Shown here: positions 4,687 to 51,667 of the stretch, one piece after another
Layout: every line of letters begins with the position of its first letter
Position numbering within the stretch: the stretch's first letter is position 1
Assembly: GCA_963745035.1 (NCBI GenBank)
Contig: CAVUVW010000015.1
Coordinates: forward strand, 288,001-352,000
DNA: 64,000 nucleotides
Origin: an uncultured delta proteobacterium
GTDB taxonomy: Bacteria; Desulfobacterota; Binatia; UBA9968
Direction: 5' to 3'
Program-made: the position numbers and the translations under genes
The notes under the pieces: model-generated
Database searches by the model: none
What the model saw: the letters and a program-made list of their open reading frames with translations, nothing else
Told to the model about the DNA's origin: nothing

Positions 4687-5094
4687 TTCAAGGCGGACTG
4701 CTTCCACTACTGTCGTTCGTCTCTCTTGCTCCCAGTCGCGGCTCTTGCCGGTCATGGAATTGAAGACACCATCGACATGCTTCCCGCGGAAAGGGTGAAG
4801 CAGCTCATGGATGCCGGCGAGAAGCTTGTCTTTATCGACATGCGCCCGGCGAAGGAGTATCAGCAGAATCGATTGCCGGGAGCGCGCTCGCTGCCGATCG
4901 CCGAAGTGGCGAACCGCTTTAGTGAGATCCCGAAAAGCGGCCGCGTGGTTCTCTACTGCGACTGCAAGACCTACGACATCGCCGATCGCGCCGTGTTCCT
5001 GGAGTATCGCGGCTATCGAAATATTTTCGTCATGCCGGAAGGTTATTCGGGCTGGGTGAAGCGCGGCTATCCGATCGAAACCAAATCTCGCTGA
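4683..5094 (+). CDS. Exported single-domain rhodanese with C-x-C active-site loop (start uncertain)
   Basis: FIDMRPAKEY...RLPGA...VVLYCDC...GYRNIFVMPEGYSGWVKRGYP; hydrophobic N-terminus ending ALA-GHG. The ORF track starts at 4726; a TTG at 4683 plus one indel gives a fuller signal peptide. Confidence 0.82.
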
Positions 5095-5450
5095 TGATTC
5101 GGTGGAGCGCCGCTCTATTCTTGTCGTTGCTAGCGCCGTCGCCGCTTTCGGCTCACGCCTATCTGGTCAAATCCGTCCCCGCCCAGCGCGCCGTGTTGTT
5201 CCGCGCGCCGGATAAGATCCAACTCTGGTTCAACGAACGCCTAGAGCCGCGCTATTCCTCGATCACGGTGAGCGACGCCGAGGGCAGGCCGGTGGACGCC
5301 GGCAAAGCCGAGGTCAACGCGCAAGATCCTAAGCAGCTCTCCGCGTCGATCAAATCCCTGCCTGCCGGCCGCTATTTCGTCAAATATCGCGTGCTCTCGG
5401 TCGACGGTCACATCGTTCAAGATCAATTTCCCTTCACCGTCAAACAATGA
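5094..5450 (+). CDS. copC: Periplasmic copper-binding protein CopC
   Basis: Signal peptide followed by mature N-terminal His (A-HAYLVKSVPA); C-terminal VLSVDGH motif; LWFNE. Confidence 0.92.
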   Translation: MIRWSAALFLSLLAPSPLSAHAYLVKSVPAQRAVLFRAPDKIQLWFNERLEPRYSSITVSDAEGRPVDAGKAEVNAQDPKQLSASIKSLPAGRYFVKYRVLSVDGHIVQDQFPFTVKQ

Positions 5451-7460
5451 CCGACCTTGCGGCAGTCGTTCGATTTGTTCATGTGACGGCTGCCGTGCTT
5501 TTAGCCGGTGCTTTCAGCTTCACCTTGCTCATCGCGCGGCCGGCCTTTCGGCGTGCTGGCCGATGAATCGCGCGCTGAATTCGCGGCGTTCTTGCATATT
5601 CAGTTGCGCATCGCCCGCTGGTGCTGGCTCGCGCTCGTCGCATCCGCTTTGCTTGGGCTCTGGCTGCAAACCGCCGCAGTCAGCGAGTCCGCCGATTTTC
5701 GCGGAATTCTTACTCTCCTCCGGGAAACGCAGTACGGCAACGTCTGGTCGGCGCGGCTGATCCTAGCGCTCATCTTGCCACTTATATTTCGGTTCGAGTC
5801 GAAGCGCCGCGGAAACGATGCCGGCATTCTTACCGTGGTCGGATTTATTCTAAGCGCTGCTTTGCTCGCATCGCTGGCGCTCGCAGGCCACGCCGCCGCT
5901 GCCGAAGGTAGAGCGCTGATCGCCCAGGTCTCAGTCGATGCTCTGCACCTTCTGGCCGCGGGAATCTGGCTCGGCGGTCTTCTGCCGCTTGCCCTCATGC
6001 TGCGCGAATGCAACCGCAAAAGCGCTGCTGTGACACTTGCCGTCGCCGGGGCAGCGACACAGCGTTTTTCTACTCTCGCGATGGTATGCGTCGGCACCGT
6101 AATGGTGACCGGCGCCTACAACGCGTGGACGTTGGTTGGTGGCTTTCCGCCTTTGTTTGGCACCGCTTATGGCCGGTTGCTGCTGCTGAAACTTGCTTTG
6201 CTCTTGCCACTGCTCGCTGTCGCGGCCGTGAATCGCTTGCGGTTTAAGCCGAAAGTCGTCGAAGCAAGTTCCTATCAAAGCAACTCAACGCTCGTGAGAA
6301 AACTCATCCACAACGTCTTTCTGGAAACAAGTCTCGGCGTCGGCATTTTGCTTATCGTCGGCTATATGGGTGTCACGCCGCCGGCGCGTCACGTCCAAGT
6401 GGACTGGCCGTTTTCAACGCGCTGGGATTGGAGCGTGCTGGACAAAGCGCCCAAGGCCCAAGCAGAAGTCGAGCGCGGTATTGTTTGGGCGGCGATCGGC
6501 GGCGTCGCCCTGATAACCACTCTGGTGCGGCGCCGTCGTCGGATCGTGACGGCTGTCATTGGACTCGGCGCGTTAGCGTACGCCGGCCGCGTGGCGGTCG
6601 ATGCGGTTTCCACCGACGCTTATCCGACCACCTACAAGCGTCCGGCCGTGGCCTATCAAGCGATCTCCGTCGCCAACGGCAAGCAGCTTTACGAGGATAC
6701 CAGCTGCGTCTCCTGCCACGGACCGGCCGGCTATGGCGACGGACCACTGGCGGAGGAGTTGCGCCCCAAACCCGCCGATCTCACCGCGCCTCACGCCAAC
6801 ACGCACACCGCCGGCGATCTTTTTTGGTGGGTCAGCCATGGCGTCAAAAATACCTCGATGCCGGGCTTCGAGCAGAGCCTCGGCGAAGAGGAGCGCTGGG
6901 ATCTGATCAATTTCATGCGCGCGCTATCGACCGGCGACCGCGCGCGCTCCCTCGCGCCGGTCATCGAGAACGAGCCCTGGCTCATCGCGCCGGATTTCAC
7001 TTACGTGACGAATGCCGGTGAAGCCAAGACGCTCCGAGATCACCGGGGCGCCAGAATCGTCCTGCTGATCTTGCTCGATGTGAAAGCAACGGAGCAGCGT
7101 CTGAAGGAGCTCGTTGGCGCCTTACCCGCCCTCCGATCGGGAAATGTCGAGGTGATCGTAATTCCCAATCTCATCGACCTGCAAAACGTAGCCGATCGCC
7201 TGCCGGGACTCATCGTCAGCGAAGGCATCCGGGAAATCTCCGAAACCTACAAGCTGTTCGCTCGCTCCTTCTCCGATGAAGGCCTGGTCAGCGGCACGCG
7301 CCATGTGGAATTTCTGATCGACAAACAAGGCTACATCCGCGCCCGCTGGCTGCCGGCGGAGAACGAAGGCTGGAAGAGGATTGAGATCTTACTCAAGCAA
7401 ATCGATCTGCTGCGCAAGGAAAGACCTCGCGCTCCCGCGCCCGATGAGCATGTGCATTAG
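5447..7460 (+). CDS. copD: CopD-family copper transport membrane protein fused to a cytochrome c domain and a C-terminal redoxin-like domain (frameshift near 5560)
   Basis: ATG 5447 overlaps the copC stop. CopD motifs LAGHA, LHLLAAGIWLGGL, RFS and TAYGRLLLLKL; heme motif CVSCH with distal MPGF; C-terminal APDF...FLIDKQGYIRARW. Confidence 0.85.
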
Positions 7461-12966: not shown

Positions 12967-14248
12967 ATGCAACTGACCTTGGCCAATCATCCGATCACAA
13001 ACATGCGCTTCGGCGCGCCGGCGCGCCTCGAAGGCACCGATCTGGTCGTCGATGCCGACGAGCTGCGCCGTATCGTGCTCGACGACGATGCCGTCGTCAG
13101 CGTCGACTTCGAAATCGTTCGTCCGGGCGAGAGCTGCCGCGCCGGGCCGATCTTCGATGTGATTGAACCGCGAGCCAAGGAGCCCGGCTACGGCGCCGAT
13201 TTCCCCGGCATTTTGGGCGCGCCGCTTACGGCGGGAATGGGCACGACACATGTTCTAAGCGGCGCGGCGGTATCGGTGCTCGCGGAAATCTCCCCGATCT
13301 TACGAGAAGCGCCACCGGGCGCGTTCTCGAAATGAGCGGCGCTCCGGCTGAGGCGAGCGCCGTATTCCGCGCTCACGCACCTGCTCGTGATTCCGCACAC
13401 CAAACCAGATTTGCCGCGCCAAGCGATTGAAAAAGCTTATCGCATCGCCGGCATTCGAGTCGCGGTGCGCTGTCGCGCGACTCGCTCTAAGACCGCGCCG
13501 CGGATCGCGGCACCAGTTCGAGCCGGTCGGGCCGGCGCGGCAAGCCGCGCAGGTCTGCCGCGCGTCGCCTACATCGGACAGATTTTTTCCCGCCAGCGCA
13601 AACCCGCCGTCGACGAGCCGATTCTTTACGGCGCCAATACCGACGGCATGCTGCCGATCATGCTCCATCCCGATGAATGGCTCGACGGCGCCATCGTGCC
13701 GTCGCTGCATTCATGGTTCGGCGGCACGGAAACTTATTTCTATCAGAATCATCCGATCATTCTCGATCTCTATCGGCGCCATCAGGCGCGCGAAATAAAT
13801 TTCGTCGGCACGGTCGCCACCATCGCCGGCTCGGACAATTTCGACCGCGAGCGCCACTGCAAGGCGGCCGCCAATCTGGTGAAATGGAATTTGCAAGCCG
13901 ACGGCGCGGTGCTGTCCAAATACGGCGGCGGCTTGCCCCACGCCGATCTGGCGGAAACTGCGCGTCTGCTCGAAGACATGGGCGATAAAAACGGCGGTGA
14001 TGGTTTCCGACGTGTCGCGCGACCGGCGAGTCGAGTCGGCGCTGCTTTTCAATGTCCCGGAAGTCAACGCCATCGTCTACAACGGCGGCAACGGCACGTA
14101 TTGGGAAGTGCCAAAAGTGGATCGCGTCGTCGCCGCGACCGCGGAATTTACCGAACTGCTGGCCGGCCCAATGAAGATCGACGCGGCCAATATCGTCGGC
14201 GTAACCAACCAGCAAGGCGCATCGAAAATGAGAGCATTGGTGTACTAG
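12967..14248 (+). CDS. Glycine/sarcosine/betaine reductase component B proprotein-like subunit (GrdE/GrdG/GrdI family); frameshifted
   Basis: IVRPGESCR...DVIEPRAK...FPG, LPRVAYI, LPIMLHPDEWLDGAI and YQNHPII..LY..H..EINFVG match the GrdE-type family. Confidence 0.82.
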
Positions 14249-14256
14249 AAGGCCAC

Positions 14257-14323
14257 GAGGCGAAAGGCGTGAGGCGTGAGTGAGGATTCATACTCATGCC
14301 TCGCGCCTCAAGCCTCATGCCTT
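14257..14323. repeat. Inverted heptamer tandem-repeat hairpin (GAGGCGT)n...(CTCRYGC-like)n
   Basis: GAGGCGA AAGGCGT GAGGCGT GAGT ... ACTCATGC CTCGCGC CTCAAGC CTCATGC, between the grdE-like stop and the grdB-like RBS. Confidence 0.7.
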
Positions 14324-14334
14324 GAGGAGCTTCC

Positions 14335-15625
14335 ATGCGAGTCGCACATTACTTGAATCAGTTCTTCGGCGGCGTCGGCGCTGAGGAGCATGCCGGCAAG
14401 GGTTTGGAGATCCACGACGGCGCGGTCGGGCCCGGCCGGCTGCTGGAACAGTTGCTCGGCGGCAGACGCGCGCGTCGCATTGACTTTTGTCTGCGGCGAT
14501 AATTTCGCGGTCGAAAATCAAGATGAGTTGACCGCCGCCGTGCTGGAAAGGCTCCGCGCCGCGAGCATTGATCTGTTCGTCGCCGGTCCATGCTTCGATG
14601 CCGGACGCTACGGCATGGCGGCCGGCGCGCTTTGCCGCGCCGTGCAAAGCGAACTCAAGATTCCCGTAATCACCGCGATGAGCGAAGAAAATCCCGGCGT
14701 CGATCTCCACCGCGACGCGCTCTACATCATCGACTCGGGAACGAATGCGGCAAAAATGCGCGACGTGCTCGGCAAGATGGCCGAGCTCTCGGCCAGAAAC
14801 TTGTCGCCAACGCGCCGATCGGTTTGCCCGGCCGAGGAAGGCTATTTGCGGCGCGGTTGGCTGCGCGATCAACTGGTCGAAAAAACCGCGGCGACCCGGC
14901 TCGTCGACATGCTGCTTGGCGAAAATGAGCGGCGCGCCGTTCGAATCCGAAATGCCGGCCACGTCGTTCGCGCCCGTGCCGATACCGGCGGCGATGCAGG
15001 ATCTATCGAAAGCCAAGGTGATGTTGATCACCGACGGCGGCCTGGTTCCCAAGGGCAATCCGGATCGGATCGAGGGCACCGCCGCGACGCGTTGGGGCGC
15101 TTACAACATCGAAGGCCGCGACGATCTGCGCGGCGAAGAATACGAAGTTTCCCACGGCGGCTACGACACGCGATTTGTTCAGGAAGATCCCGATCGGCTG
15201 GTTCCGCTCGACGCCATGCGCGAGATGGAAAAGAACGGCGTCATCGGTAAGCTCCACGATGAATTCATTTCCACCTGCGGCCGCTCCAATCCGCTGTCGA
15301 ATACGCGCCGGCTCGGCCGGGAGATCGCCGACAAGATCAAGAAGGACGGCGTCGACGCGGTCATCCTTACGTCGACGTGAGGTACCAGCACTCGCAGCGG
15401 CGCTGCGATCACGACCGAGCTGGAGAAGGCGGGCATTCCCGGTCGTGCAAATCACCTCCGCCCTGCCGATTGCCAAAATGGTCGGCTCCAACCGGGTGGT
15501 TCTCGGCGACCGGCATCGTCCACGTGACCGGCGACGCCAAGCTTCCGCCCGCCGACGAAAAGGACCTGCGGCGAAAGTTCGTCCAGCAAGCGCTCGACGC
15601 GCTGCAGTCCGACAAGACACAGTAG
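14335..15625 (+). CDS. Glycine/betaine/sarcosine/D-proline family reductase selenoprotein B (GrdB-like); Sec UGA at 15378-15380, also frameshifted
   Basis: MRVAHYLNQFFGGVG, CGDN, AGRYG, MSEENPG, LITDGGLVPKGNPDRIE, HGGYD, DPDRLVPLD, then VDAVILTST-TGA-GTSTRSGAAITTELEKAGIP continuing in frame. The UGA sits at the family's known Sec position. Confidence 0.88.
15392..15408 (+). promoter_or_regulatory. Putative bacterial SECIS element of the GrdB-like gene
   Basis: Perfect stem TCGCAGC/GCTGCGA with a GGC loop, starting 11 nt after the in-frame UGA. Confidence 0.7.
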
Positions 15626-15783
15626 CCGCTCCTCGTTCTGAACGAGCTTCCCGGGATTGGCGTGAGGCGGGCAACGGGGCTTGCGTCAGCGTCAACCCTT
15701 GATTGCTCGCCTGCAGGTCACGCCGCGCTCTACACAAACGGTGAATTTATCGTTAGAATCTTCTCGGCCTGCAGTTTTTATTT

Positions 15784-16434
15784 ATGGATGCGTCAAAAAC
15801 CAAGTTTCTCTTGCTTGGCCTGGGCGTCGTCGGTCTGGGCATCGTCCTGGGCACCGCCCTTTGGCTCAGAGTCGGGGCGCCGCAGGGACCGTGGGGCCAC
15901 GCTTCGGGCAACTCGGCTGAGAGTCTCGAACAGTATGGCGCGGTGCCCGATTTCGCATTGACGGAAAGAAACGGCAATGCCGTCGGCCTCGACGAGCTGC
16001 GCGGCAAGATTTGGATCGCGGATTTTATCTACACGACCTGCACGGACACCTGCCCATTGCAGACCGCGATGATGGCCAAGCTCCAGCAAGAATATGCCCA
16101 CAAGCCTGAGGTACAGTTCGTTTCGTTTACGGTCGACCCGGAGCGGGACACGCCGGAAGTGCTGACGGCTTACGGCGCCAAACACCAAGCCGACGCCGCG
16201 CGCTGGTATTTCTTGACCGGCCGGCGCGATCGCATCATGCGCTTGATCCAGGATGGGTTTCACCTGGCGGTGGCGGCGCTGCCGGTCGATGCCGCGCCCG
16301 GCGGCATGATCCCGCACAGTCCGCGCTTTGTCTTGGTCGACAAGCAATCCCGCATCCGCGGCTACTATGACAGCCGCGACCTCGAGGCATTCGCGCGCCT
16401 CAAGAACCACATCGATACTTTGTTGAAGGGGTAG
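15784..16434 (+). CDS. SCO1/SenC family copper chaperone
   Basis: N-terminal TM anchor; FIYTTCTDTCP (CxxxC), FTVDPERDTPE and IPHS. Confidence 0.92.
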   Translation: MDASKTKFLLLGLGVVGLGIVLGTALWLRVGAPQGPWGHASGNSAESLEQYGAVPDFALTERNGNAVGLDELRGKIWIADFIYTTCTDTCPLQTAMMAKLQQEYAHKPEVQFVSFTVDPERDTPEVLTAYGAKHQADAARWYFLTGRRDRIMRLIQDGFHLAVAALPVDAAPGGMIPHSPRFVLVDKQSRIRGYYDSRDLEAFARLKNHIDTLLKG

Positions 16435-16440
16435 ATAGAG

Positions 16441-17313
16441 ATGGCCAACGAGAAAAGCAAGAAAGGCAAGCAACCGGCTGCCGCGGGACTCGTGCGCGAG
16501 GGGCCGAACTGGCCGCTGTTTGTGCTGGCGGTTCTCGGCATGGCCTTGTCGGGATATCTCACGTTTTCCGCGTGGCAAGGAGACCGCGCCGCGTTCTGCG
16601 CCGAAGGAGCCGGCTGTGATGTCGTGCTCAGCAGCCGCTGGGCGACGCTCCTAGGCATGCCGACCTCATTCTGGGGTTTTCTAACTTACGCGCTGCTCGG
16701 CGCCGTCGCGTGGAATCGCGATGCCGCCAATCAATGGCGCTGGGCTTGGGTGATTTCCCTGTTCGGTCTGTTTTTCAGTCTGTATTTAACCGGCGTCTCG
16801 TTTTTGTCATTGCAGGCAGCCTGCCCCTACTGCCTGGGTTCGCTCGGGCTGATGACGGCTATTTTTCTTCTGACGACGTTGCAGCGACCGAAGAACTTGC
16901 CGAAGTTTTCCTGGGGACCGTTCCTGGGAAAAAGCGTCGGTGCCGCGGCGCTCGTCATGATCGCGCTGCATCTGCACTACGCCGGCTACCTGGGCAGCGC
17001 TCCCAAACCCGAGGACCCCTGGATTCGCGCCTTGGCGGAGCATCTGTCCAAGACCGACGTGAAGTTTTACGGCGCCTCGTGGTGCCCTCACTGCACCGAG
17101 CAGAAACACCTCTTTGGCAGCTCGGAAAAGCGCATCCCTTATGTCGAATGCAGCCCGGGTGGATCCAAGGGACCCCAGGCGCCGGCTTGCAAGGAGAAAA
17201 ATATTCAGAGCTATCCGACCTGGATCATCAACGGACAGCGCTATACCGGCATCCAGCCGTTGGATGCGCTCGCGCGGTTCAGCAACTTTCAATATCAAGG
17301 AGACAAACGATGA
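16441..17313 (+). CDS. Vitamin K epoxide reductase (VKOR) family protein fused to a thioredoxin-like domain (disulfide-bond formation)
   Basis: C-x5-C..VLSS loop, CPYC in the TM region, then FYGASWCPHC, YVEC, AC..IQSYPTW. Same architecture as cyanobacterial VKOR-Trx. Confidence 0.92.
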   Translation: MANEKSKKGKQPAAAGLVREGPNWPLFVLAVLGMALSGYLTFSAWQGDRAAFCAEGAGCDVVLSSRWATLLGMPTSFWGFLTYALLGAVAWNRDAANQWRWAWVISLFGLFFSLYLTGVSFLSLQAACPYCLGSLGLMTAIFLLTTLQRPKNLPKFSWGPFLGKSVGAAALVMIALHLHYAGYLGSAPKPEDPWIRALAEHLSKTDVKFYGASWCPHCTEQKHLFGSSEKRIPYVECSPGGSKGPQAPACKEKNIQSYPTWIINGQRYTGIQPLDALARFSNFQYQGDKR

Positions 17314-17783
17314 TCGCGCTCCGGATGCAACAAAGCGGTGGCGCCGCTCTCGTGAGCTTGGCGCTGACAATTTTTTCGATCGGACCGGCGCACGCGGATC
17401 CTTCCAAATATCCGGCCTTCGCCCAGCAGTCGCTGCCGCAAGATATCAAGCCGGAATTTATCGGCATCGAGGATCTCGTCAAAGAGATCCAGGCGGGCGC
17501 CAAGCCGGTGATCATCGACGTGCGCACGGTCGAAGAATTTCACGAGGTGCATATTTTGGGCGCGGTTTCCGCCCCGCTCGCGGAGTTCAAGGATTATGTG
17601 AAGAGCATTCCGCGCGATCGCCCGGTCGTGCTCTATTGAGCTTGCCCCCATCACCTGGCCAGTCTGGCCTACGGCATGCTCTACGAAAACGGTTATCGCA
17701 ACATGAAGATCCTCGACGAAGGAATCGTCGGATGGTACCAAAAGCGCTATCCGATGGAAGGGACCAAAACGCCCCGCTCCTGA
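17310..17783 (+). CDS. Exported rhodanese-like selenoprotein with a U-x-C active site; Sec UGA at 17637-17639
   Basis: AAGGAGA RBS and ATGA overlap with VKOR; signal peptide ..GPAHA; IIDVRT.EEF..HILGA; VVLY-TGA-ACPHHLASLAYGMLYENGYRNMKILDEGIVGWYQKRYP completes the rhodanese fold in frame; the second stop lies 3 nt before queC. Confidence 0.85.
17640..17679 (+). promoter_or_regulatory. Putative bacterial SECIS element of the rhodanese gene
   Basis: Apical stem GGCCA/TGGCC (17657-17669) with a GTC loop (G is 23 nt after the UGA); lower stem GCTTGCC/GGCATGC. Confidence 0.6.
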
Positions 17784-17786
17784 GCT

Positions 17787-18483
17787 ATGGCCGCTAAGAA
17801 CGCCGTGATCCTGCTGAGCGGCGGCATCGACTCCGCCACCGCCGCCGCCGTCGCGAAACGGGACGGCTACGATCTGCATGCGTTGACCTTCCACTACGGC
17901 CAGCGCCACGAGCGGGAGATCGAGTGCGCCGGGAAAATTGCCGCATTCTTGGGGGCAAAAACACAAAAGGTCATGCGCTTCGACTTGCGAGCGATCGGCG
18001 GCTCCGCTCTCACCGACGACATCGCGGTGCCCAAGGAACGGAGCGAGGACGAGATCGCGGCCGGCGTGCCGATGACCTACGTGCCGGCGCGCAACACCAT
18101 CTTTCTGTCGTTCGCATTGGCGCTCGCCGAGCGCATCGGCTCCCAGGATATTTTTTTCGGCGCCAACCAATTGGACTACAGCGGCTATCCGGATTGCCGC
18201 GACGAATACATCCGGGCGTTTGAAAAAATGGCGAATCTGGCCACCAAGGCCGGAGTGGAGGGCAAGAGCCGGATGAGCGTTCACGCGCCGCTACTGCAAA
18301 TGACCAAGGCGGAGATCGTCAAGCTCGGTGATTCCCTCGGTCTTGACTTCGGTTTGACCTGGAGCTGCTACGATCCGCGACCGGGCGGGCGGGCGTGCGG
18401 CCAGTGCGACAGCTGCCGGCTCCGGCTGAAGGGCTTCCGCGAAGCCGGCCGCAGTCGATCCGCTCGCCTACGCCGAAGACTGA
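17787..18483 (+). CDS. queC: 7-cyano-7-deazaguanine synthase QueC (indel near 18450 fuses it artefactually to the next gene)
   Basis: LLSGGIDS, YGQRH, TYVPARN, YSGYPDCR and TWSCY...CGQCDSC; the canonical end VDPLAYAED* lies in the shifted frame. Confidence 0.93.
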
Positions 18484-18494
18484 AGTGTTTGTCC

Positions 18495-19385
18495 ATGTTG
18501 TCCACTCCGTTCACCGCCGAATTTCTCAGTCAGCTCGAAGCGCTGCGCTTGCGCACGCGAAAGGAATTTCTCGGCAGCCACCCGGGCAGCTACTCTTCAC
18601 CGCGGCGCGGCACGAGCTTGGAGTTTTCCGACTATCGCCGCTACTCTCCCGGCGACGATCTGCGCTACATCGATTGGGGCATCTACGCGCGCAGCGACCG
18701 GCTGTTCATCAAAGTTTTTCGCCAGGAAGTCGATCTCTTCGCCTACGTCTTCATCGACACCAGCGCGTCGATGGCGTTTCCCTCGCGCGCGGAGAAATTC
18801 TTGCCCGCAAGCCATGTCGCGCTGGCGCTTTCCTACGTGGTCCTGGCCAATCACGATCACGTCAAGCTGCATTTGCTCCAAAACACGAGCAACACCGCGT
18901 CCCAGTTCTATCGCGGCCGGCGGCGCATGCGCGATTGCGTGGAATTTGCCACCTCCGCTGCCCCGGGCGGATCGCTGGATCTGGCGTTCGCGTTGAGCGA
19001 ACATCTCCAGCGGGTGCGCCGGCCCGGCAAGGCCATTCTGATTTCCGATTTCCTGATGCCGGCGGCGTCTTACCAGCAGGGACTCAACCTGCTGCGCGCG
19101 TCGAATCTCGATGTGGTGGCGATTCAGGTGCTGTCGCGCCACGAAGTCGATCCGCCCTTTCCCAACGGCAGCGTGGCGTTGATCGACAGCGAAAGTCAAA
19201 ATGAGATCAAGCATCAGTGGAGCGCGGCGGCGCGGCGCGAATACCAGGCGAGGCTCGCCCATCATAACTTGGAGATTCGCAGTTTCTGCCACCAGAGCGG
19301 CATGCACTATTCGCTCTACGTGACCGATCGCGATCTCGGCGATTTTGTCTTCGCCACCTTGCCGGCCATCGGCCTGTTCAAATAG
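18495..19385 (+). CDS. DUF58 family protein (MoxR-associated, VWA-like)
   Basis: GTSLEFSDYRRYSPGDDLRYIDW..YAR, IDTSASM and LISDF. Confidence 0.9.
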   Translation: MLSTPFTAEFLSQLEALRLRTRKEFLGSHPGSYSSPRRGTSLEFSDYRRYSPGDDLRYIDWGIYARSDRLFIKVFRQEVDLFAYVFIDTSASMAFPSRAEKFLPASHVALALSYVVLANHDHVKLHLLQNTSNTASQFYRGRRRMRDCVEFATSAAPGGSLDLAFALSEHLQRVRRPGKAILISDFLMPAASYQQGLNLLRASNLDVVAIQVLSRHEVDPPFPNGSVALIDSESQNEIKHQWSAAARREYQARLAHHNLEIRSFCHQSGMHYSLYVTDRDLGDFVFATLPAIGLFK

Positions 19386-34948: not shown

Positions 34949-36587
<1,639 letters not shown>

Positions 36588-42085: not shown

Positions 42086-43576
42086 TTATTTTACGAAGAA
42101 GCGAAGCGACTCGCTGGTATATCGCAGCAGGGGGGCGAAATAGATGCCGAACACGACCGTCAGGAGCGTGAGGGGCGCGAGAAGGGTGAAATTAAAGTCG
42201 CCGGCGCCGAGGGATACTGTTTTATCCTCCGGGTTGGGCGCATCCAAAAACATCGTCTTGATGATCTTGGCGTAGTAATAGAGCGACACGACGCTGTTCA
42301 TGACCGCAACGAGAGCCAAGAGGACGAACACCCCGCCTTCTTTGAGAACCGCAGCGAACAAGAAAAACTTGCCGATGAATCCGGCGAACGGCGGCAAGCC
42401 GGTCAAAGAAAGTAAAAAGATCGCCAGGCAGACCGCGGGTACGACGGCGCCGCGCCAGGCCAGACCGCGGTAGCTCTCGATGTCTTCGCCGCCGGTGACG
42501 TTGGCGATCATGCCGACGACCAAAAACGCGCCGAGATTCATGATGAGGTAAACGACCACGTAAAACAAAATCGCCGAGAGCCCTTCGTTGTTCAGCACCG
42601 CCAGGCCCATCAGCATATAGCCGGCATGCGCGATCCCCGAGTAGGCGAGCATGCGCTTTAAATTACGCTGGTTGAGAGCGCAGAGATTGCCGACCGTCAT
42701 CGTGATCATGCTCACGAACAACAGCACATGCGGCCACTCCACACCGGAGATGAATGCCCATTCCCCGCCCGGAACCATGCGCGAGACGCCGGGAAAAAAG
42801 AATCGGATCATGATCGCTATGCCGGCGGCGTTGGAGGCGACGGAGAGAAACGCCGTGAACGGCGTTGGCGCGCCCTGGTAGACATCGGGCGACCACATGT
42901 GGAAAGGCACGAAAACGATCTTGTAGCCGAAACCCGCCATGATGAAGACAAACGCGATAAACAGCGCCGCCTTGTTGATCTCGGGTTGCGCCAGCGCGAC
43001 TTGAATGGCGGCGTAGTCCAGGCTGCCGGTCATGCCGAAGATCCAGCTCATGCCGTAAATCATCGTGCCGGACGCGACGCCGCCGTAGATCAAGTATTTC
43101 AGCGCCGCTTCGCTGGAGCGACGATTGCGCGGCAGGAAGCCCGTGAGAACATAAGAAGTCAAGCTCACCAGCTCGAGCGAGAGATAGGCCATCAGCAAAT
43201 TGCTCGACGAGGCCATGAAAAACATGCCGAGCGTGCAAGTGAGCAGCAGCGCGTAATACTCGCCCTGGTAAACTTGCTTGATTTCGTTGCTGCCGAGCGA
43301 CATCAAGATGCAAAGAATCGCCGCTGCCAGGGCGAGGACTTTAAAAAACAAACTGAAGCTGTCGAGGATTATCATCCGGTGAAAAAGCCAACCGGGTTGC
43401 GCGCTATAAAGATCGAAAGTGGCGATCAGAGCGGCGACGCTGCCGGCGAGCGCGATCAGAGCCAGCCGATCCTTGGCGCGCACGAGCAGGTCGAGAACGA
43501 TGATCAACAGGATCGTTCCCGAAAGGATGAACTCCGGATAAAAGAAGCTGAGACTGCCGATGTTCTTTAAGTCCAT
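42086..43576 (-). CDS. nuoN: NADH-quinone oxidoreductase subunit N
   Basis: EAALKY, KIVFVPFHMWSPDVYQGAP, KRMLAYS and GLPPFAGFIGK. Confidence 0.95.
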   Translation of the reverse strand: MDLKNIGSLSFFYPEFILSGTILLIIVLDLLVRAKDRLALIALAGSVAALIATFDLYSAQPGWLFHRMIILDSFSLFFKVLALAAAILCILMSLGSNEIKQVYQGEYYALLLTCTLGMFFMASSSNLLMAYLSLELVSLTSYVLTGFLPRNRRSSEAALKYLIYGGVASGTMIYGMSWIFGMTGSLDYAAIQVALAQPEINKAALFIAFVFIMAGFGYKIVFVPFHMWSPDVYQGAPTPFTAFLSVASNAAGIAIMIRFFFPGVSRMVPGGEWAFISGVEWPHVLLFVSMITMTVGNLCALNQRNLKRMLAYSGIAHAGYMLMGLAVLNNEGLSAILFYVVVYLIMNLGAFLVVGMIANVTGGEDIESYRGLAWRGAVVPAVCLAIFLLSLTGLPPFAGFIGKFFLFAAVLKEGGVFVLLALVAVMNSVVSLYYYAKIIKTMFLDAPNPEDKTVSLGAGDFNFTLLAPLTLLTVVFGIYFAPLLRYTSESLRFFVK

Positions 43577-43584
43577 GGGCGCGT

Positions 43585-45097
43585 TTAAAGGTGCGGCATA
43601 ATCGCTTGATTGATCTGATCCAACGAAGCGCGCAGCATGTCCAAGACCGCATTGGGGTAAATACCCACGATGATCACGATGGCGCCCAACGGCACCAAGG
43701 TGAACATTTCCCGGCCGTTGATTTCCGACAGCTTCAGATACTTTTCATTGGGTGGGCCGAGATAGACGCGCTGGATGGTCCAGAGCAGGTAACCCGCGGT
43801 CAGGATCACACCGCTGGCGCCCAGGATCGTCAAGACCGGATATTTCTGCCAGGTGCCGAGCAAAACCAGGATTTCCGAGATGAAGCCGGAAAGCCCGGGC
43901 AAACCCATGGAGGCAAAAAAGGCCAGGGCGGTCACACCCGTGTAGACCGGCATAATCGCCGCGAGGCCGCCGAAGCCGTCAATCTCACGGTGATGCGCCC
44001 GGTCGTAGATGACCCCGACCAAAAGGAAGAGCATGCCGGTGATCGTGCCATGATTGAACATCTGCAGCACGGCGCCGTTGATTCCCTGGGTGGTGAAGCT
44101 CGCCATGCCGAGCATGACATAGCCCATATGGCTCACGCTCGAATAAGCGACCAACTTCTTGAGGTCTTTTTGCGCCATGGCGCAAAGAGCGCCGTAAATG
44201 ATGTTCCATACGCCGAGAGCGCCCAAAAACCAAAACGCCAGGTCCGCGGTCGCCGCCGGCAGCATCGGAAAATTGACGCGCAGAATGCCGTACGTGCCCA
44301 TCTTCAAAAGCACGCCGGCGAGAATGACCGAGATAGCGGTCGGCGCCTCGACGTGGGCATCCGGCAGCCAGGTATGAAACGGAAACGCCGGTATCTTGAT
44401 CGCAAAGCCGATGAACATGCGCCATCCAGACCGCGTGCTGGAAACCCCAGCCGAGCTGATTGAACGGCCACATCGGCAGCGGCTCGGTGCCGAATTTGCC
44501 CGCCTGCGCCATCATGACCGTCATGTCGAAGGTGTGCGGTTCAACCGAAAAATACAGCGCGAGGATGGAGATCAGCATGAAAGCGCTGCCGAAAAACGTG
44601 TAGAGAAAGAACTTGATCGCGGCGTACTCGCGCCGCGGCCCGCCCCATATGCCGATCAGGAAGTACATGGGCAGCAGCATCACTTCCCAGAAAACAAAGA
44701 ACAGGAAAAAATCGAGGGCGCAGAAAACTCCCATCATGCCGGCGTCGAGCATGAGAAACAGCGCGAAGTAGCCTTTGACCGCTTTATCGATGCCAAAAGA
44801 AGCGAAGATGCAGAGAAAGCTCAACAGCGCGGTCAACAAAACCATGGAGATGCTGAGGCCGTCGACGCCCATGTAGTAGCTGATGTTGAAGGCGGGAATC
44901 CATTGATACTTCTCGACGAACTGAAAACCTGCTTGCTTGCGATCAAAGTTGGCGAACAGCCAGACTGCCATCAAGAGCGGCGGCACGGTCGCGGCGGCGG
45001 AGACCCAACGAATCAGCTTGGCGTTGTTCGGCAGCGCCAGCACGATCGCCGCTCCAGCGACCGGAATAAAGGTCATGTAGGTGAGCAAGTTTTCCAT
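43585..45097 (-). CDS. nuoM: NADH-quinone oxidoreductase subunit M (frameshift near 44420)
   Basis: GVDGLS, FWEVMLLPMY, FPFHTWLPDAHVEAP and AYSSVSHMG. Confidence 0.95.
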
Positions 45098-45118
45098 TTC
45101 CGAGATTCTCCCTAGAAA

Positions 45119-47155
45119 TCAGCTCCAGTAGCGGAGCTTGACAATGATCGCCAGCGCCACGGCGATCAAAATCCCATAAAGATAGCTGTTGATATTGCCG
45201 GTCTGAACTCGGCGAAACTTGTTGCCGGCCCAAAACGTGATGTTGGCAACCGCGTTGACGATGCCGTCGATGATGTAAGCATCGAACAGGCCGTTCAACC
45301 AGGAAATGAATCGGGTCACGCTCGCCGAGCCATTGACGATGCCGTCGATGACGTAGGCATCGAACGCGGACAAAACTTTGGCGAGCAGCAAGGAGCCGTT
45401 GACGAACAGAACCTGATAAATCTCGTCGACATACCACTTGCGGTCGAACAGCCGATAAAAAAACCCGCCCGCAAGATTGGCGAATACTGCCGGCGAAATG
45501 CTCTCGCGCCGGTACATGAGGTAGGCGACGAAGGCGCCGCAGCGATGCCACGCCGACGGAGAGTGCCATCAAACCCCATTCCAAAGCATGGGAGCCGTGG
45601 TGCTCTTCGTGATGAATCACCGGCTCGAGCCAATGCGCGAACTGGCTGCCGCCCAACACCGCCGGCAGGCCGATGAATCCGGCGAGCACAGCGCCGGCCG
45701 CCAAGCACGACAAGCGGCATCGTCATCACCGACGGCGATTCATGGAGGTGTTCCTGGGTATGATGGTCGGCGCGGCAGTCGCCGTAGAAGGTCATAAAGA
45801 GCTGGCGGAACATGTAGAACGCGGTCATGCCGGCACCGCACAGGGCAAAGAACCAGATTTCCCAGTGGTGACCGGAAGCGGCGAGCCAGAGAATCTCGTC
45901 CTTGGAAAAGAACCCCGCGAACGGCGGGAAGCCGGCAATGGCGAGCACAGAAATAAAAAACGTCGCAAAAGTGATCGGCATCCATGTCTTGAGCCCGCCC
46001 ATTTTGCGCATGTCCTGCTCATGATGCATGGCGTGGATCACGCTGCCGGAGCCGAGGAACAAGCAGGCTTTGAAGAACGCGTGGGTCATCAAATGAAAAA
46101 CCGCCGCGGCATAGCCGCCGACGCCGACGCCGATAAACATGTAGCCGAGCTGGCTGACCGTGGAATAGGCTAGGACTTTCTTGATGTCGTACTGGGTGAG
46201 CGCAATCGTTGCGGCGACCAGCGCGGTGGCGACGCCGATGACGGCGATCACATTCAAAGTGTCCGGCGCCATGGAAAAGAAAACGTTCATGCGCGCGGTC
46301 ATGTAAACGCCGGCGGTCACCATGGTGGCGGCATGGATGAGCGCGCTCACCGGCGTCGGCCCGGCCATGGCGTCGGGAAGCCAGACAAACAAGCGGAATC
46401 TGCGCCGATTTACCAGTCGCGCCGACAAAGAGGAACAGGGTCGCCACGGTCGCCACCGGCATGCCCCAGATCATCATGTCCTTGATCGACGGCGCCCATT
46501 TCACCATATCGCGAAACGTCAAGGTGCCGTGCCCCTGCGCGTCGAGCGACCAGAACAGCAAAAACATGCCGAGGACGAAACCGAAGTCGCCGACCCGGTT
46601 GACGATAAAAGCTTTATTGCCGGCGCGAGCGTTGGCATGGTCGGTGTACCAAAAGCCGATCAGCGCGTAGGAGCACAAACCGACGCCCTCCCAGCCGACA
46701 AACAACAGCAGCAGGCTGTCGCCCAATACCAAGGTCAGCATGGCCGCGGTGAACAAATTGAGATAGGCGAAGAAGCGCCAGAACGCCTTGTCGTCGTGCA
46801 TGTAGCCGGTGGCGTAGATGTGAATCAAGCCGCCGATGCCGGTGACGATGAGGATCATGACGGCCGAGAGCGGGTCGACCATGAAGGCCATGTCGACCTT
46901 CAGCGAGCCGAGATCGATCCAGCGATAGAGATTATCGATGAGAAAGCGCTTTTCCGGTTCGAGACCGACGAGAATGAAGAACGCCCAAACCGACAGACCG
47001 AAGGCGATCACCACCGGCGCGCACGCGATCAGTCCGATGGCGCCTTTGCCCATGCTCTTCTGGATCTTCGCGCCTAATAGGCCGTTAACGATCGCGCCGA
47101 GCAACGGCAAGAAAACGATCCAGCGAATAAAATCTGTCTGTATCGGGTTTTCCAT
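45119..47155 (-). CDS. nuoL: NADH-quinone oxidoreductase subunit L (about 3 frameshifts)
   Basis: [46 protein letters not shown] and QTGNINSY. Confidence 0.93.
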
Positions 47156-47266
47156 AGAGTTACAGTGAGAAGAAGTCCGTGAACAGTGAACCGCGCATAG
47201 ATTCAACTTTAATGTGCGTCTGGAATCTCCTCACGCCTCACTTCTCACAACTTAACCTTCACTACT

Positions 47267-47578
47267 TTACTCTTTCAGCGTTTCCGCCGCTTCGACATCG
47301 ATGGTATTGAAGAGCTGGAAGATCGCGAGCACGATGGCCAAGCCGACCGCCGCCTCCGCGGCGGCCAGCATGATCACGAAAATCGCATAGATCTGCCCGT
47401 CGGCGTTGCCGCTACCAAAATGCGAGAACGCGACATAATTGATATTAGCGCTGTTGAGGATAAGCTCGACGCCCATCAACACGCTGATCGCATTGCGCCG
47501 CGTCAACACGGTGAAAAGTCCGAGGGCGAAGAGAATCGCGCCGATGATGAGATAAGAAGAGAGGTCGTTCGGCGACAT
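47267..47578 (-). CDS. nuoK: NADH-quinone oxidoreductase subunit K
   Basis: RRN..LMGVELILN and AAAEAAVGLA. Confidence 0.95.
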   Translation of the reverse strand: MSPNDLSSYLIIGAILFALGLFTVLTRRNAISVLMGVELILNSANINYVAFSHFGSGNADGQIYAIFVIMLAAAEAAVGLAIVLAIFQLFNTIDVEAAETLKE

Positions 47579-47579
47579 G

Positions 47580-48080
47580 CTACTCTTTGATCTCCTTGCG
47601 CGACAGCACGACCGCGCCGATCATGGCCGCAAGCAAAACCAAAGAGGCCAGCTCGAACGGAAGCAGATAGGTGTAGAGAAAAAGATCGCCGATCTTTCCC
47701 GCCGTGGCTTCGTAAACCAGTTGCTTCGCCTTGACCCATGGGGTTTCCATGGCGGTGTCGATCAAGAGATAAGCGAGGACGCCGACAACGATCAGCGCGG
47801 GAATTGTTCCGGCGGATCGGTTGGTGACCTGCACGTCGGTTATGCGGTGGGTCAACATGACCGCGAATAGAATCAGCACGAGAATGCCGCCGACATAAAT
47901 CAGCACTTGAACCGCCGCCACGAAGTCGGCGCCGAGGAAAACATAAAGCCCGGCGACGCCCATAAACGTGCCGAGCAGAGAGAACGCCGAGTAAATAATA
48001 TTGCGGGAAAACGCCACCATCGCGGCGGAACCCACCGTAATGAGAGCGATTAGATAGAAAACCGCCGTCGAAACGTCCAT
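47580..48080 (-). CDS. nuoJ: NADH-quinone oxidoreductase subunit J
   Basis: QVLIYVGGI..LFAVML and PFELAS. Confidence 0.95.
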   Translation of the reverse strand: MDVSTAVFYLIALITVGSAAMVAFSRNIIYSAFSLLGTFMGVAGLYVFLGADFVAAVQVLIYVGGILVLILFAVMLTHRITDVQVTNRSAGTIPALIVVGVLAYLLIDTAMETPWVKAKQLVYEATAGKIGDLFLYTYLLPFELASLVLLAAMIGAVVLSRKEIKE

Positions 48081-48201
48081 ATCATTCTATAACTGTTGGG
48101 ATCGCGGAAAGTTGAAGATGTTTTCGGTCACTTACCGGAAGATCCGACTCGAATCAAGGGGTAAAAACGCGGCACTTCTTTCGCTACCCCGCATCAGCGT
48201 A

Positions 48202-48769
48202 TCAACTGCCGCCCTCCTCTGCTGCGGCCCCTCCACCGTCCGGCGTGGCAAACTCATCGAGGTACTTCTGTCCGATATCGACTTTCGTAGCGAGCTTTGG
48301 ATCGGTCTCGCCACCCTTCTTCGGCTTGTAAAGGTTCTGCATCTGCGGCGCGAAGTGGCGCACCAGGCCGGCCGGGTTGTAGCTCGCGCCTTCAAATTCT
48401 TGCGAATGGCGAATCGATCCGGTCGGACAGACTTCCGAACACAGCCCGCAATACATGCATTTGCAAACATCGATGTCGAAGTGAGTGAACTGGCGTTGCT
48501 TGGTTTCCTTATTCTGCGTCGATGCCGATCGTGATGCAGGTGATCGGACACACTCTTTCGCAGGCCAAACAGCCCGTGCAGATGTCGAGATCGACTTCAA
48601 GAATACCTCGGTAGCGGAGCGGCAAAGTATCCTGAATCGGCACCGGAATCTTGTCCGGATACTGAATCGTCATGGGACGGCGTATCAAATGCGAAAAAGT
48701 GATCGACATTCCCTCGAACGTCGAAGCGATCACTTGGCAAATATCTTTTCCGTAACTTAGAACACCCAT
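48202..48769 (-). CDS. nuoI: NADH-quinone oxidoreductase subunit I (frameshift near 48515)
   Basis: TIQYP; two 4Fe-4S motifs CTGCLACERVCP and CMYCGLCSEVCP. Confidence 0.92.
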
Positions 48770-48782
48770 AAAACCTCGATCC

Positions 48783-49980
48783 CTAGATATGCGGTTTAAA
48801 GTATAGCTCGGGCCGGGCGTTGTCGATCTGAAATTTCACCCGTATGACGAATAGGATGACGATTGCGATACCGAAGCCCAAGGTCGCCGCGCCGATGACG
48901 CGACGCAGGTCATCGGGCACGAACATAAATCCGATGGTACCGAGCAAGCAGACAAACGACAGCGGCACCATATATTTCCAACAAAGCCCCATCAATTGAT
49001 CGACGCGCACGCGCGGCAAAGTCGCGCGCACCCACATGGCGACAAAAACCCACAAATACGCCTTTAAGAAAAACGTTGTGAACTGCGCGATGCCGAGCAG
49101 CACCGGACTATTTTCGAAAATCGGCAGCGGCGGCACCTGCCATCCGCCCAAAAAGAGCGTGGTCGCGACCGCGCCGATGACGTAGAGATTGCCCCACTCG
49201 GCGAAAAAGAAGAACAGAAAGCGCATGCCGCTGTATTCGGTGACATAGCCGGCGACGAGCTCCGATTCGGCTTCGGGAATGTCGAACGGCGTGCGGTTGC
49301 CTTCGGCGAGCGCCGCGGTGAAGTAGAGAAAAAACGCCGCAAAAGTGAATGGATTATGGAACAGGAACCAATCCCACGGTCCCCAACCTTGCGCCTTGAT
49401 GATGCCCTGCATGCTCATCGTGCCGGCAAGAAACACGATCGTCACGATCGATACGCCCGCGGGAATTTCATAGCTGACGATCTGTGCCGCCGAGCGCATG
49501 CCGCCGAGCAGCGACCATTTGTTGTTCGACGCCCAGCCCGCCATGAGGATGCCGACGACCACCAGCGACGTGACCGCGAGAACGTACAGGATACCGATGT
49601 TGAGATCGGCGACGATCAGAGCTTGCGCCGAAGGGAATGACGACGAAGGTGCAGAGAAAGCCCATGAACACGATATACGGCGCCAGAGAAAACAGCTTGG
49701 AATCGGCCGCGGCAGGAATCAAATCTTCCTTGAGCAGATTCTTGATGCCGTCGGCGAGCCACTGAAGAATCCCTTGCGGCCCGACCCGGTTGGGCCCGAC
49801 CCGCGACTGCATGCGCGCCCAAACCCGCCGTTCGAGCCAACTGGTCACGCCGGCAAGCGGCGCGACGAAAACCGAAAGCACGACGAAGGCGACGAGCACC
49901 ATCGCAAGCGCATAAACGACTTCTTTCGGCATACCGGCGAAGGCGCCGTCTTGAATCAACTGATCAATATAAGGTTGCAT
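48783..49980 (-). CDS. nuoH: NADH-quinone oxidoreductase subunit H (frameshift near 49620)
   Basis: ERR..RVGPNRVG, ADGIK..KE, SYE and NRTPFD.PEAESELVAG..EYSG. Confidence 0.95.
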
Positions 49981-50000
49981 GATTTATCTACGACTCGAAT

Positions 50001-51142
50001 TCAGCGATCGATCTCGGGCGCGTCGACATCGAGACTGCCGATCAAAGCGATCAGGTCCGCGAGCATGATACCCTTGCTGAGCTTATCGATGATGGCCATA
50101 GCGGTAAACGATCCCGTGCGGATACGCACCCGGTAAGGATACTCGCTGCCGTCGCTGACGACGTAAAAGCCCATGTCGCCGCGCGGCGCTTCGACCCGAG
50201 CGTAGCATTCGCCCGCCGGCGGTCTGAACTTGCGCGGCACCTTCGAAATCGCCGGCCCCTTGGGCATCATCTTCAGACACTGGCGTAAGATTTTGCAGCT
50301 TTCCTGCATTTCGCGGATGCGCACCCAGTAACGATCGAAGCTGTCGCCGAGCGTGCCCACGTGCGCGGTGCCGATCGGCACTTCGAATTCCAATTCAGGA
50401 TAGACGGAATAAGGAATATCGCGCCGGATATCCCATTTGATCCCCGAGCCGCGCAGGTTCGGCCCGACCAGATTGTACGAAAACGCGTCTTCTCTGCTGA
50501 CGATCGCGACTCCGGCCAAGCGCTCAATGAAAATCTTATTGCCCGACAGCAGACGATTGAACTCATCGACGATCGGCTCGAGATGATCGATAAACTCGCC
50601 GATCTTGGCGAGCAAGTCTCCGGAACGATATCGTAGCCGACGCCGCCGATGCGGATATAATTGTAGGTCAGCCGCGCGCCGCAGATCTCTTCCATCAAGT
50701 TATTGACGGTTTCCCGCTCTCTGAGCGCGTGCACGAACGGCGTCATGGCGCCGATGTCCTGACCGAAAGTGCCGACGGAGATCAGATGGCTGGCGATGCG
50801 GTTGAGCTCGCAGGCGATCACGCGGCAAAACTCGCCGCGCCGGGTCACCTCGGTGCCGGCAAGCTTTTCCGCCGCCATGCAGAACGCCTGATTGGCGAAC
50901 ATCGCGGCTAGATAATCGGCCCGATCGGTATACGGCACGTAGCCGTGATAGGTCACCTTCTCGCCGATTTTCTCGATCGAACGATGCAGATAGCCGACGT
51001 CGGGGATGGCCTCGCTGATGACTTCACCGTCGGTCTTGACCACAAAGCGCAGCACGCCATGGGTGCTCGGATGCTGCGGCCCGACACTGATGGTCATGTC
51101 TTCGGTATTTAGACCGGTCCCTGTTTCAATCGATTCGTTCAT
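50001..51142 (-). CDS. nuoD: NADH-quinone oxidoreductase subunit D (frameshift near 50615)
   Basis: [26 protein letters not shown] and C-terminal EIDR. Confidence 0.95.
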
Positions 51143-51145
51143 AAT

Positions 51146-51653: not shown

Positions 51654-51667
51654 TGGCCGGGTCCGGC

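Follow-up and report, generated by a model that had tools for sequence, protein, structure and literature searches.

A SCO, VKOR-thioredoxin and UxC rhodanese gene cluster of Binatia with a very probable selenocysteine codon

Proteins of the VKOR-thioredoxin (VKOR-Trx) family make disulfides and pass the electrons to quinone. For the SCO proteins, the thioredoxin-like protein TlpA serves as a reductant, which is a precedent for SCO needing a dedicated redox partner. We describe here a cluster in which genes for a SCO protein and a VKOR-Trx protein stand next to the gene for a small exported rhodanese with an in-frame UGA codon, very probably read as selenocysteine (Sec). The cluster occupies positions 15784 to 17783 of a stretch of 64,000 nucleotides (the window) from an uncultured delta proteobacterium (GTDB lineage Bacteria; Desulfobacterota; Binatia; UBA9968; assembly GCA_963745035.1, contig CAVUVW010000015.1, positions 288,001 to 352,000 of the forward strand). 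An earlier note on this DNA had proposed the three genes as a periplasmic copper, thiol and selenol redox system and had known of no description of the combination; no description of SCO, VKOR-Trx and Sec-rhodanese together was found in the literature that we searched.

Several forms of rhodanese selenoproteins have been described. In the parts compared, a review of the prokaryotic selenoproteome (2026) gives five rhodanese-like forms with the motifs UxxS, UxxG, CxU, UxxG and UxxxxU, whereas UxC is given for just two other proteins, one thioredoxin-like and one a Cu/Zn efflux transporter (PMC13188914). A UxC rhodanese is absent from its table and the name 'Binatia' from its text; the comparison covers the review's own text and table, and an earlier listing in its sources is possible (PMC13188914). 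The Global Ocean Sampling (GOS) paper also lists rhodanese-type selenoproteins, none with a U-x-C motif in the part of it that was compared. No paper linking 'Binatia' with 'selenocysteine' was found in the literature. Likewise, no model of NCBIfam release 20.0 is passed by the Sec-rhodanese: its best match is NF041203 (rhodanese_LYCAU, form 3), where 60.1 bits fall short of the cut-off of 115 for membership. The protein resembles forms 1-5 in having a rhodanese domain with Sec in or beside the active-site loop. The motif CxU of form 3 is, however, the mirror image of its U-x-C, in which Sec stands at the position of the catalytic Cys and Cys at +2. The Sec-rhodanese therefore appears to be an uncatalogued form among rhodanese selenoproteins.

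Other described systems share single traits with the cluster. TsoB (NF045694), a rhodanese/DsbD fusion-like selenoprotein, also joins a Sec-rhodanese to a membrane thiol-redox protein, but the rhodanese of the window fails membership in that family (17.9 bits, cut-off 805), the TsoB motif is UxxxxU, and the partner in TsoB is the reductive DsbD instead of the oxidative VKOR. Overexpression of the Escherichia coli rhodanese PspE reportedly makes up for the lack of DsbA in disulfide formation, and cross-talk of a periplasmic rhodanese with the Dsb system thus has a precedent. PspE (2jtq, E 2.4e-8) is, like the Sec-rhodanese, a small exported single-domain protein; unlike it, PspE has a single Cys and no Sec and is not encoded with SCO or VKOR. 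The VKOR-Trx protein has the same two domains as the Synechococcus VKOR-thioredoxin (3kp9, 4nv2) with all redox Cys kept, but its gene sits between those for SCO and the Sec-rhodanese. The SCO protein shares the thioredoxin fold, the CxxxC motif with a His and the membrane anchor with Bacillus subtilis YpmQ (1xzo) and Bradyrhizobium ScoI Blr1131 (4wbj). In contrast to known SCO systems, no oxidase genes are adjacent, and the genes next to it encode an oxidising VKOR-Trx and a rhodanese in place of a TlpA-type reductant.

The gene order and spacing given in the earlier note were confirmed. A gap of 6 nt (16435-16440) separates SCO from VKOR-Trx, and VKOR-Trx overlaps the rhodanese gene by ATGA (17310-17313; rhodanese ATG at 17310, VKOR stop codon TGA at 17311-17313). 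All the motifs that it had named are present as well (CxxxC with His in SCO, CPYC and CPHC in VKOR-Trx, UxC in the rhodanese), which confirms the observation. The three-gene feature is real and beyond chance. The products are all envelope-targeted as read from the sequence, SCO by an anchor, VKOR as a membrane protein and the rhodanese by a signal-like peptide, and neither an oxidase nor a DsbA gene was found among the open reading frames (ORFs) of the window scanned with Pfam. The main features are as follows.

15784..16434, + strand: SCO1/SenC-family gene; 216 aa, membrane-anchored (read from sequence); PF02630, E 4.5e-29
16441..17313, + strand: VKOR-thioredoxin fusion gene (VKOR domain in the membrane, thioredoxin-like domain in the periplasm); 290 aa; PF07884, E 4.2e-24
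17310..17783, + strand: exported single-domain Sec-rhodanese gene; 157 aa with TGA read as U; PF00581, E 1.4e-15
17638..17681, + strand: hairpin resembling a selenocysteine insertion sequence (SECIS) just 3' of the UGA; from folding, covariation and synonymous-site entropy

The in-frame UGA of the rhodanese gene

Under translation table 11, the rhodanese frame stops after 109 codons at the TGA at 17637-17639; with TGA read as U, it runs to 17783, its stop codon being at 17781-17783. The read-through protein has the motif L-Y-U-A-C-P-H-H, in which U110 is encoded at 17637-17639 and C112 at 17643-17645. Its N-terminal signal-like peptide (17310-17396, ending in AHA with DP following), as read from the sequence, is kept in all 45 homologues compared. 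PF00581 matches residues 57-144 with 58 bits (cut-off 22.2), and the AlphaFold2 model (mean predicted local distance difference test score, pLDDT, of 84) has an ordinary alpha/beta rhodanese fold. The best Foldseek matches of the model are single-domain rhodaneses, for example 3nhv (E 2e-8, template modelling scores 0.61/0.71, root-mean-square deviation 1.7), and the UGA codon aligned with the catalytic Cys of solved rhodaneses such as 3tp9. The structure searches returned generic single-domain rhodaneses only, and a CxC-type structure was not found among them; similarly, a protein-cluster search with the natural Cys homologue P0058 gave only generic 'rhodanese-like' clusters.

The position of the UGA is highly conserved. 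The database search gave 657 homologous protein clusters at E <= 1e-3 among 939 candidates. Among the best 120 of the 657, 118 are gene calls of 97-112 aa, and the truncated homologues that were aligned (17/17) end at ...VVLY, or IVLY in one. In the two longer proteins among these 120, the U position is taken by Cys (P0058, L-Y-C-A-C-P-H-H) or W (P0007); homologues with Cys at the Sec position comprise P0058, P0165, P0194, P0224 and others. Scanning of genome contigs yielded 46 related loci, 45 of which have TGA at the same codon, the remaining locus (L055) being cut before the TGA site. In the 45 loci, the frame goes on past the TGA into ACPHHLASLAYG...GYRNMKVL...GW...YP, and the conservation of the protein persists for 47 residues beyond the TGA.

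The sample of genomes at the level of the order gave the same picture. By counting the listed rows, which include four unpublished genomes (G257, G225, G247, G230), a match at E <= 1e-10 was obtained for 83 of the 121 genomes, and 80 of the matches are at orthologue level (E <= 3e-27). The TGA lies inside the match in 79 of these 80 genomes, G220 being the exception. The conservation of the in-frame TGA is thus far beyond chance expectation. In a phylum-wide sample the rhodanese was found in one of 151 genomes, the window's own. This result reflects sampling, since the sample holds only a few genomes per family, and the order-level search is the informative one.

The sequence 3' of the UGA folds into a hairpin (17638-17681, -18.1 kcal/mol, z -2.46), and only 5 of 200 shuffled sequences fold as well. 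The apical stem-loop of the window is GGCCA-GUC-UGGCC (17657-17669). Its 5-bp stem (GGCCA-GUY-UGGCC) is kept in 42 of 42 aligned sequences, one pair having seven G-U variants and one compensatory C-G; the alignment comprises 42 of the 43 distinct 72-nt segments, L047 being omitted as its 3' part is rearranged. For a set of 37 distinct sequences from the family of the window, synonymous codons had a mean entropy of only 0.31 bit at codons +5..+10, compared with 1.29 bit over the 24 codons preceding the UGA and 1.05 bit at +14..+39. The two copies dropped from this set are broken: the VKOR and rhodanese matches of L046 are frame-shifted, and the rhodanese of L047 diverges 21 codons past the UGA.

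The genome also encodes the means of Sec insertion. The genes selA (592 bits), selB (347 bits) and selD (385 bits) are neighbours on contig 17 and all exceed their curated cut-offs, and Aragorn found one tRNA-Sec. Other evident UGA genes of this genome are a membrane-domain-rhodanese with the motif L-Y-C-S-U, the known CxU form (contig C10:50873-51178, -), an AhpC/redoxin-like gene with W-U-P-A-C (contig C13:193147-193359, -) and selD itself with one TGA (contig C17:318816-319742). The rival reading of the TGA is a true stop, which would leave a truncated rhodanese of 109 aa and ascribe the conservation downstream to another ORF or a pseudogene. Although 118 of the best 120 homologues listed are gene calls that stop at the TGA, a rhodanese ending before the catalytic loop would be without an active site, the frame is open and strongly conserved for 47 further codons in 45 loci, full-length Cys homologues exist, and both the conserved hairpin and the full Sec machinery are present. 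We therefore regard the true stop as extremely unlikely. Because the codon of the catalytic Cys is UGA and is followed by the conserved hairpin, the rhodanese is very probably a genuine selenoprotein with a U-x-C-P active-site loop.

Conservation, partners and relatives of the cluster

The earlier note had reasoned that its proposal would not hold if the gene order were confined to one genome. SCO, VKOR-Trx and rhodanese were found in this order by tblastn in 37 of 39 window-type loci (L010-L048), and the contigs of the other two end inside or just before VKOR. The spacing is tight as well. Of 37 measurable loci, 35 have SCO and VKOR 1-16 nt apart; VKOR overlaps the rhodanese by 4 nt in 35 of the 39; and QueC follows the rhodanese after 2-10 nt in 34 of 38 measurable loci, with a distance of -4 in two more. 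The unit in the window's family is really SCO-VKOR-rhodanese-QueC. Past a gap downstream of QueC, the order DUF58-BatA is also conserved in the related loci. Gene order in this lineage is generally conservative, as DUF58-BatA demonstrates, and tight spacing by itself is therefore weak evidence of shared function.

The other families of the order are more telling; beyond the window-type loci, the arrangement varies as listed below.

Family f78 (G190, G194): Cox11-like(-DUF4382), SCO, VKOR-Trx and Sec-rhodanese (U-A-C-P-R-H), then a GST gene; no QueC there
Family f77 (G165, G168): SCO and directly the Sec-rhodanese; no VKOR match in either genome (95% and 81% complete)
G220 (L137): SCO, DsbH-like, VKOR, a rhodanese without Sec or Cys, QueC
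'Entotheonella'/Tectimicrobiota-titled loci: Sec-rhodanese alone between unrelated genes in 6/6 loci; VKOR match in 0/5 genomes

The order of the trio is the same in both loci fetched from f78 (2/2), where the flanks differ and QueC is absent downstream. Of the three genes, SCO is the one that stays constant within the order, whereas VKOR and the rhodanese, though each occurs with SCO, are each dispensable. In G165, the 200-nt spacer between SCO and the Sec-rhodanese (L139 4035-4234) reads by eye as the C-terminal ~25 residues of VKOR-Trx and looks like a deletion remnant of that gene in a genome without a VKOR match. In G220, SCO and VKOR are separated by an inserted gene with a DsbH/DUF255 thioredoxin domain.

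The SCO protein has all its Cu ligands intact and is a predicted copper chaperone. It scores 101.5 bits with PF02630 (cut-off 22.8), has an N-terminal hydrophobic anchor as read from the sequence, and carries C86-T-D-T-C90 (codons 16039-16053) and H178 (16315-16317). These two Cys and the His are invariant in 30 aligned orthologues. Among solved structures it comes closest to other SCO proteins, namely 4hde (E 5e-26), YpmQ of B. subtilis and Blr1131. The genome has six SCO-family matches and three CuA-domain (COX2) matches, one of which is on another contig and has a different SCO paralogue at a distance of about 0.65 kb.

VKOR-Trx scores 85.6 bits with PF07884 (cut-off 27.5) and has the motifs CPYC (C128/C131) and WCPHC (C215/C218). 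Residues 26-284 align with the Synechococcus VKORC1/thioredoxin protein (3kp9, 4nv2) with E of about 2e-48, and C53, C59, C128, C131, C215, C218, C237 and C250 are invariant in 19 orthologues. As this is the only VKOR of the genome and DsbB was not found there, it probably forms disulfides for the cell in general and is not a paralogue reserved for the rhodanese.

Within the genome, the Sec-rhodanese has its closest paralogue in an L-Y-C-D-C protein (4726-5094, 38% identity). Wider relatives were sought in metagenomes with the pattern [IV][VI][TLA]YC[AG]CPH, which gave 513 stretches, 505 of them confirmed relatives, and 80 were kept. An ORF was placed on the motif in 74 of the 80, and 38 of these focal ORFs were scanned with Pfam. 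In 24 of the 38, proteins of ~365-530 aa have the rhodanese behind two N-terminal stretches with cytochrome c matches; a further 12 show the rhodanese alone, some being truncated at contig ends, and 2 were mis-picked. The two stretches are, by their Pfam matches, two predicted cytochrome c domains, and the fusions are predicted dihaem proteins. Half of the fusions (12 of 24) have the gene for a small WXXGXW-repeat protein immediately upstream. The dihaem cytochrome c-rhodanese family (Y-C-[AG]-C-P-H) occupies the metagenome loci L060-L132. No description of it was found in the literature searched, and the papers found on rhodaneses with dihaem cytochromes or CopC/CopD were on sulfur oxidisers and thiocyanate, none of them on the CxCP family.

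Three positions do not vary in the wider family, namely the first (Cys or Sec), +2 (Cys) and +3 (Pro). The two positions past CxCP do (H-H, R-H, H-E, N-H, H-A). The fixed second Cys and the repeated haem fusions argue for redox chemistry over simple persulfide carriage. The CxCP rhodaneses, including many dihaem fusions, look like an uncharacterised class of periplasmic redox enzymes.

The genomic context supports a copper and thiol-redox theme of the operon. In 13 of the 39 window-type loci, the trio is preceded by one to three genes for Cox11-like proteins along with a second SCO and DUF4382, with a methyltransferase in 12 of the 13, and a Cox11-like gene is upstream in both f78 loci. In the window itself, these upstream genes are replaced by a GrdB-like gene, and a CopC/CopD cluster with the rhodanese paralogue lies ~8 kb upstream of the trio. 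Two metagenome contigs (L056, L057) carry a Cys-type single-domain relative (Y-C-A-C-P-H-E) flanked by SCO genes that are ~30% identical to the window SCO. A tblastn search with the window SCO, VKOR, CopC and Cox11-like proteins against the 80 Cys-type metagenome loci, most of which are cytochrome c fusions on short contigs, found SCO in these two and VKOR in none. As for the suggestion in the earlier note that the trio matures an exported Cu or Cu-S enzyme, the context supports a link to copper, but nothing is specific to a Cu-S enzyme.

Near-identical window DNA occurs in soil, rhizosphere and winery metagenomes. Sixteen runs contain at least half of the sampled words, and such DNA was found in runs from 9 studies. 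The Sec-rhodanese is abundant in soil and rhizosphere metagenomes, and it is nearly always annotated as a 109-aa fragment. Four RNA-library runs gave contigs of the region, which may stem from contaminating DNA. One crosses the SCO/VKOR junction (X18 record 14, 16348-16538), two cross the VKOR/rhodanese junction (X17 record 6, 17272-17534; X20 record 22, 17230-17471), and two cross the UGA unchanged at 17637-17639 (X17 record 7, X19 record 19). No listed RNA-library contig joins the rhodanese to QueC, which does not amount to evidence of a transcript end. The contigs are a weak hint that the trio is expressed. Both junctions of the trio, whose co-transcription the earlier note had wanted checked, are bridged, but this does not establish one transcript.

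Proposed role of the cluster and rival explanations

We tentatively consider the trio to be an SCO-centred periplasmic thiol/selenol redox and copper-handling cluster of one order of soil bacteria, a composite proposal whose chances we put somewhat short of even. Sec110 and Cys112 of the rhodanese would cycle between the selenol/thiol and the selenenylsulfide state, and the protein would serve in periplasmic redox chemistry instead of simply carrying sulfur. It may exchange electrons with the thioredoxin-fold proteins encoded alongside, SCO being the most constant partner. Where VKOR is present, its Trx domain could be the route to the quinone pool; in the relatives, the CxCP domain fused to two c-type haems might provide a route to the respiratory chain. 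More speculatively, the cluster could keep the copper-ligand Cys of SCO or of client copper proteins in the right redox state during the assembly of copper centres, a role in keeping with the frequent presence of Cox11-like, second-SCO and DUF4382 genes ahead of the trio. Selenium would be placed beside copper-chaperone and disulfide-forming machinery, a link not described in the selenoprotein or copper-homeostasis literature searched. A bolder version, in which the U/C-x-C-P rhodanese is an unrecognised periplasmic two-electron module wired to quinone or haems and catalyses a selenium-dependent step on SCO chaperones, seems to us unlikely.

Several observations weigh against the proposed role. 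In the window's family QueC, a cytoplasmic tRNA-modification enzyme, is as tightly linked as the trio, so that close packing is in itself no proof of a common function. VKOR is absent from both f77 genomes, where the Sec-rhodanese is kept, and from all five 'Entotheonella'-titled genomes, where the Sec-rhodanese stands alone. Conversely, no rhodanese match was found in five genomes from three genera of the window's family, in four of which SCO and VKOR are adjacent; in two genomes of these rhodanese-less genera QueC follows directly after VKOR. The rhodanese of G220 (L137 6210-6683, -) has Y-G-N-R-P-R-H, with neither Sec nor the Cys at +2, in the same operon position. VKOR-Trx is the sole VKOR match in the 7.4-Mb genome, its position possibly reflecting a general role, and no DsbB match was found in this genome (92.6% complete). 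None of the three genomic CuA-domain matches is in the window. The two His past the CxCP core vary within the wider family, and the RNA-library contigs may hold DNA and do not prove a single transcript. The dedicated trio of the earlier note thus survives as a conserved unit, but VKOR or the rhodanese is lost elsewhere and QueC is linked as tightly. Its suggestion that VKOR-Trx cycles the Se-S bond of the rhodanese becomes one of several possibilities, as VKOR-Trx is the only genomic copy and the rhodanese persists without VKOR.

Much of this would also be expected if the cluster were an inherited gene order and no dedicated module, with a general VKOR-Trx, one SCO of several and a PspE-like sulfur or selenium transferase in a housekeeping operon with QueC. 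The single VKOR with no DsbB found, the six SCO-family matches, QueC at 2-10 nt in 34/38 loci, the equally conserved DUF58-BatA order, the solitary rhodanese in 6/6 'Entotheonella'-titled loci and the loss of either VKOR or the rhodanese all favour such an explanation. It does not account well, however, for the trio kept without QueC between different flanks in f78, for the SCO-rhodanese adjacency that recurs after the loss of VKOR, for a distant SCO (30% identity) that also flanks a Cys-type relative, or for the VKOR/rhodanese overlap of 4 nt kept in 35/39 loci. Moreover, the invariant second Cys and the cytochrome c fusions misfit a plain PspE-like carrier. We judge inherited order to be somewhat unlikely, though it is the strongest of the rivals.

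Two further explanations are both quite improbable in our view. In one of them the rhodanese would bind Cu(I) through Sec110, Cys112 and His114/His115 and exchange copper with SCO. Selenolates bind Cu(I) very tightly, and the copper-chaperone neighbourhood, the paralogue beside CopC/CopD and the U-x-C-P-H-H motif of the window's family point in this direction. The His pair is variable, however (P-R-H in two other families; P-H-E, P-N-H and P-H-A in Cys-type relatives), which speaks against a metal site strictly dependent on His; the motif of the CopC-linked paralogue is C-D-C-K-T-Y, and no metal-site rhodanese is among the solved-structure matches. In the other, the CxCP/UxCP rhodanese would oxidise periplasmic sulfide or persulfide/thiosulfate, the pair taking up sulfane sulfur and being re-oxidised via VKOR-Trx and quinone or via haems, by analogy with sulfide:quinone reductase and flavocytochrome c. 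The rhodanese fold with Sec at the persulfide-forming position and the quinone-linked oxidant encoded next door are consistent with this, as is the resemblance of the dihaem fusions to the dihaem subunit arrangement of flavocytochrome c sulfide dehydrogenase. But the window and the flanks examined showed no further genes of sulfur oxidation, the constant neighbour is a copper chaperone, and the protein has no flavin or other cofactor domain. The SCO-centred redox and copper-handling cluster remains the proposal that we prefer.

Neighbouring genes

The remaining features near the trio and in the CopC/CopD cluster upstream are listed below.

17787..18480 (end approximate), + strand: QueC (7-cyano-7-deazaguanine synthase) gene; Pfam QueC E 5e-75, residues 6-220 of the ORF 17787-19385
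15731..15759, + strand: promoter-like site 5' of the SCO gene; TACACA-17-TAGAAT, 9/12 consensus matches
4726-5094, + strand: paralogous rhodanese (L-Y-C-D-C), closest paralogue of the Sec-rhodanese in the genome; Pfam scan
5094-5450, + strand: CopC gene, its start overlapped by the L-Y-C-D-C rhodanese gene
5508-7460, + strand: CopD-cytochrome c fusion gene; Pfam; thioredoxin/AhpC-like C-terminal part

Scanning of the region for promoters and terminators gave weak consensus matches only. Two promoter-like matches were found, compared with a mean of 0.6 in shuffled sequences, each a weak consensus match and no evidence of function. QueC starts 3 nt past the rhodanese stop codon and is probably in the same transcription unit within the window's family, outside the conserved core. 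In the window, QueC and DUF58 form a single open frame of 532 aa (17787-19385). In related loci the two are separate, mostly ~140-520 nt apart and several kb apart in three, and the fused frame is probably an assembly artefact or the result of a lost stop codon.

In both L136 (G173 contig 12, 98000-117900) and L138 (G235 contig 19), at least five paralogous CxC rhodaneses (L-Y-C-[DG]-C) form an array. Those of L136 are interleaved with Amidohydro_3 proteins (~580-620 aa), making up a repeated gene pair, beside a CopD-cytochrome c-AhpC fusion.

A GrdE/GrdB-like gene pair of the glycine-reductase type (12967-15625) precedes the trio in the window, with an in-frame TGA at 15378-15380. What the earlier note had seen directly upstream as a second selenoprotein gene is the GrdB-like gene of this pair, but its adjacency is not shared: a GrdB-like gene is not beside the trio in any of the 46 related loci. 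As a member of the module it was rejected on this ground. Its coding sequence jumps between at least four frames. Other genes of the window are likewise in pieces, such as a Cpn60 fragment (34949-35761) and several nuo genes (42086-52183), and assembly indel errors are for this reason a more likely cause of the frame jumps than decay of the GrdB-like gene.

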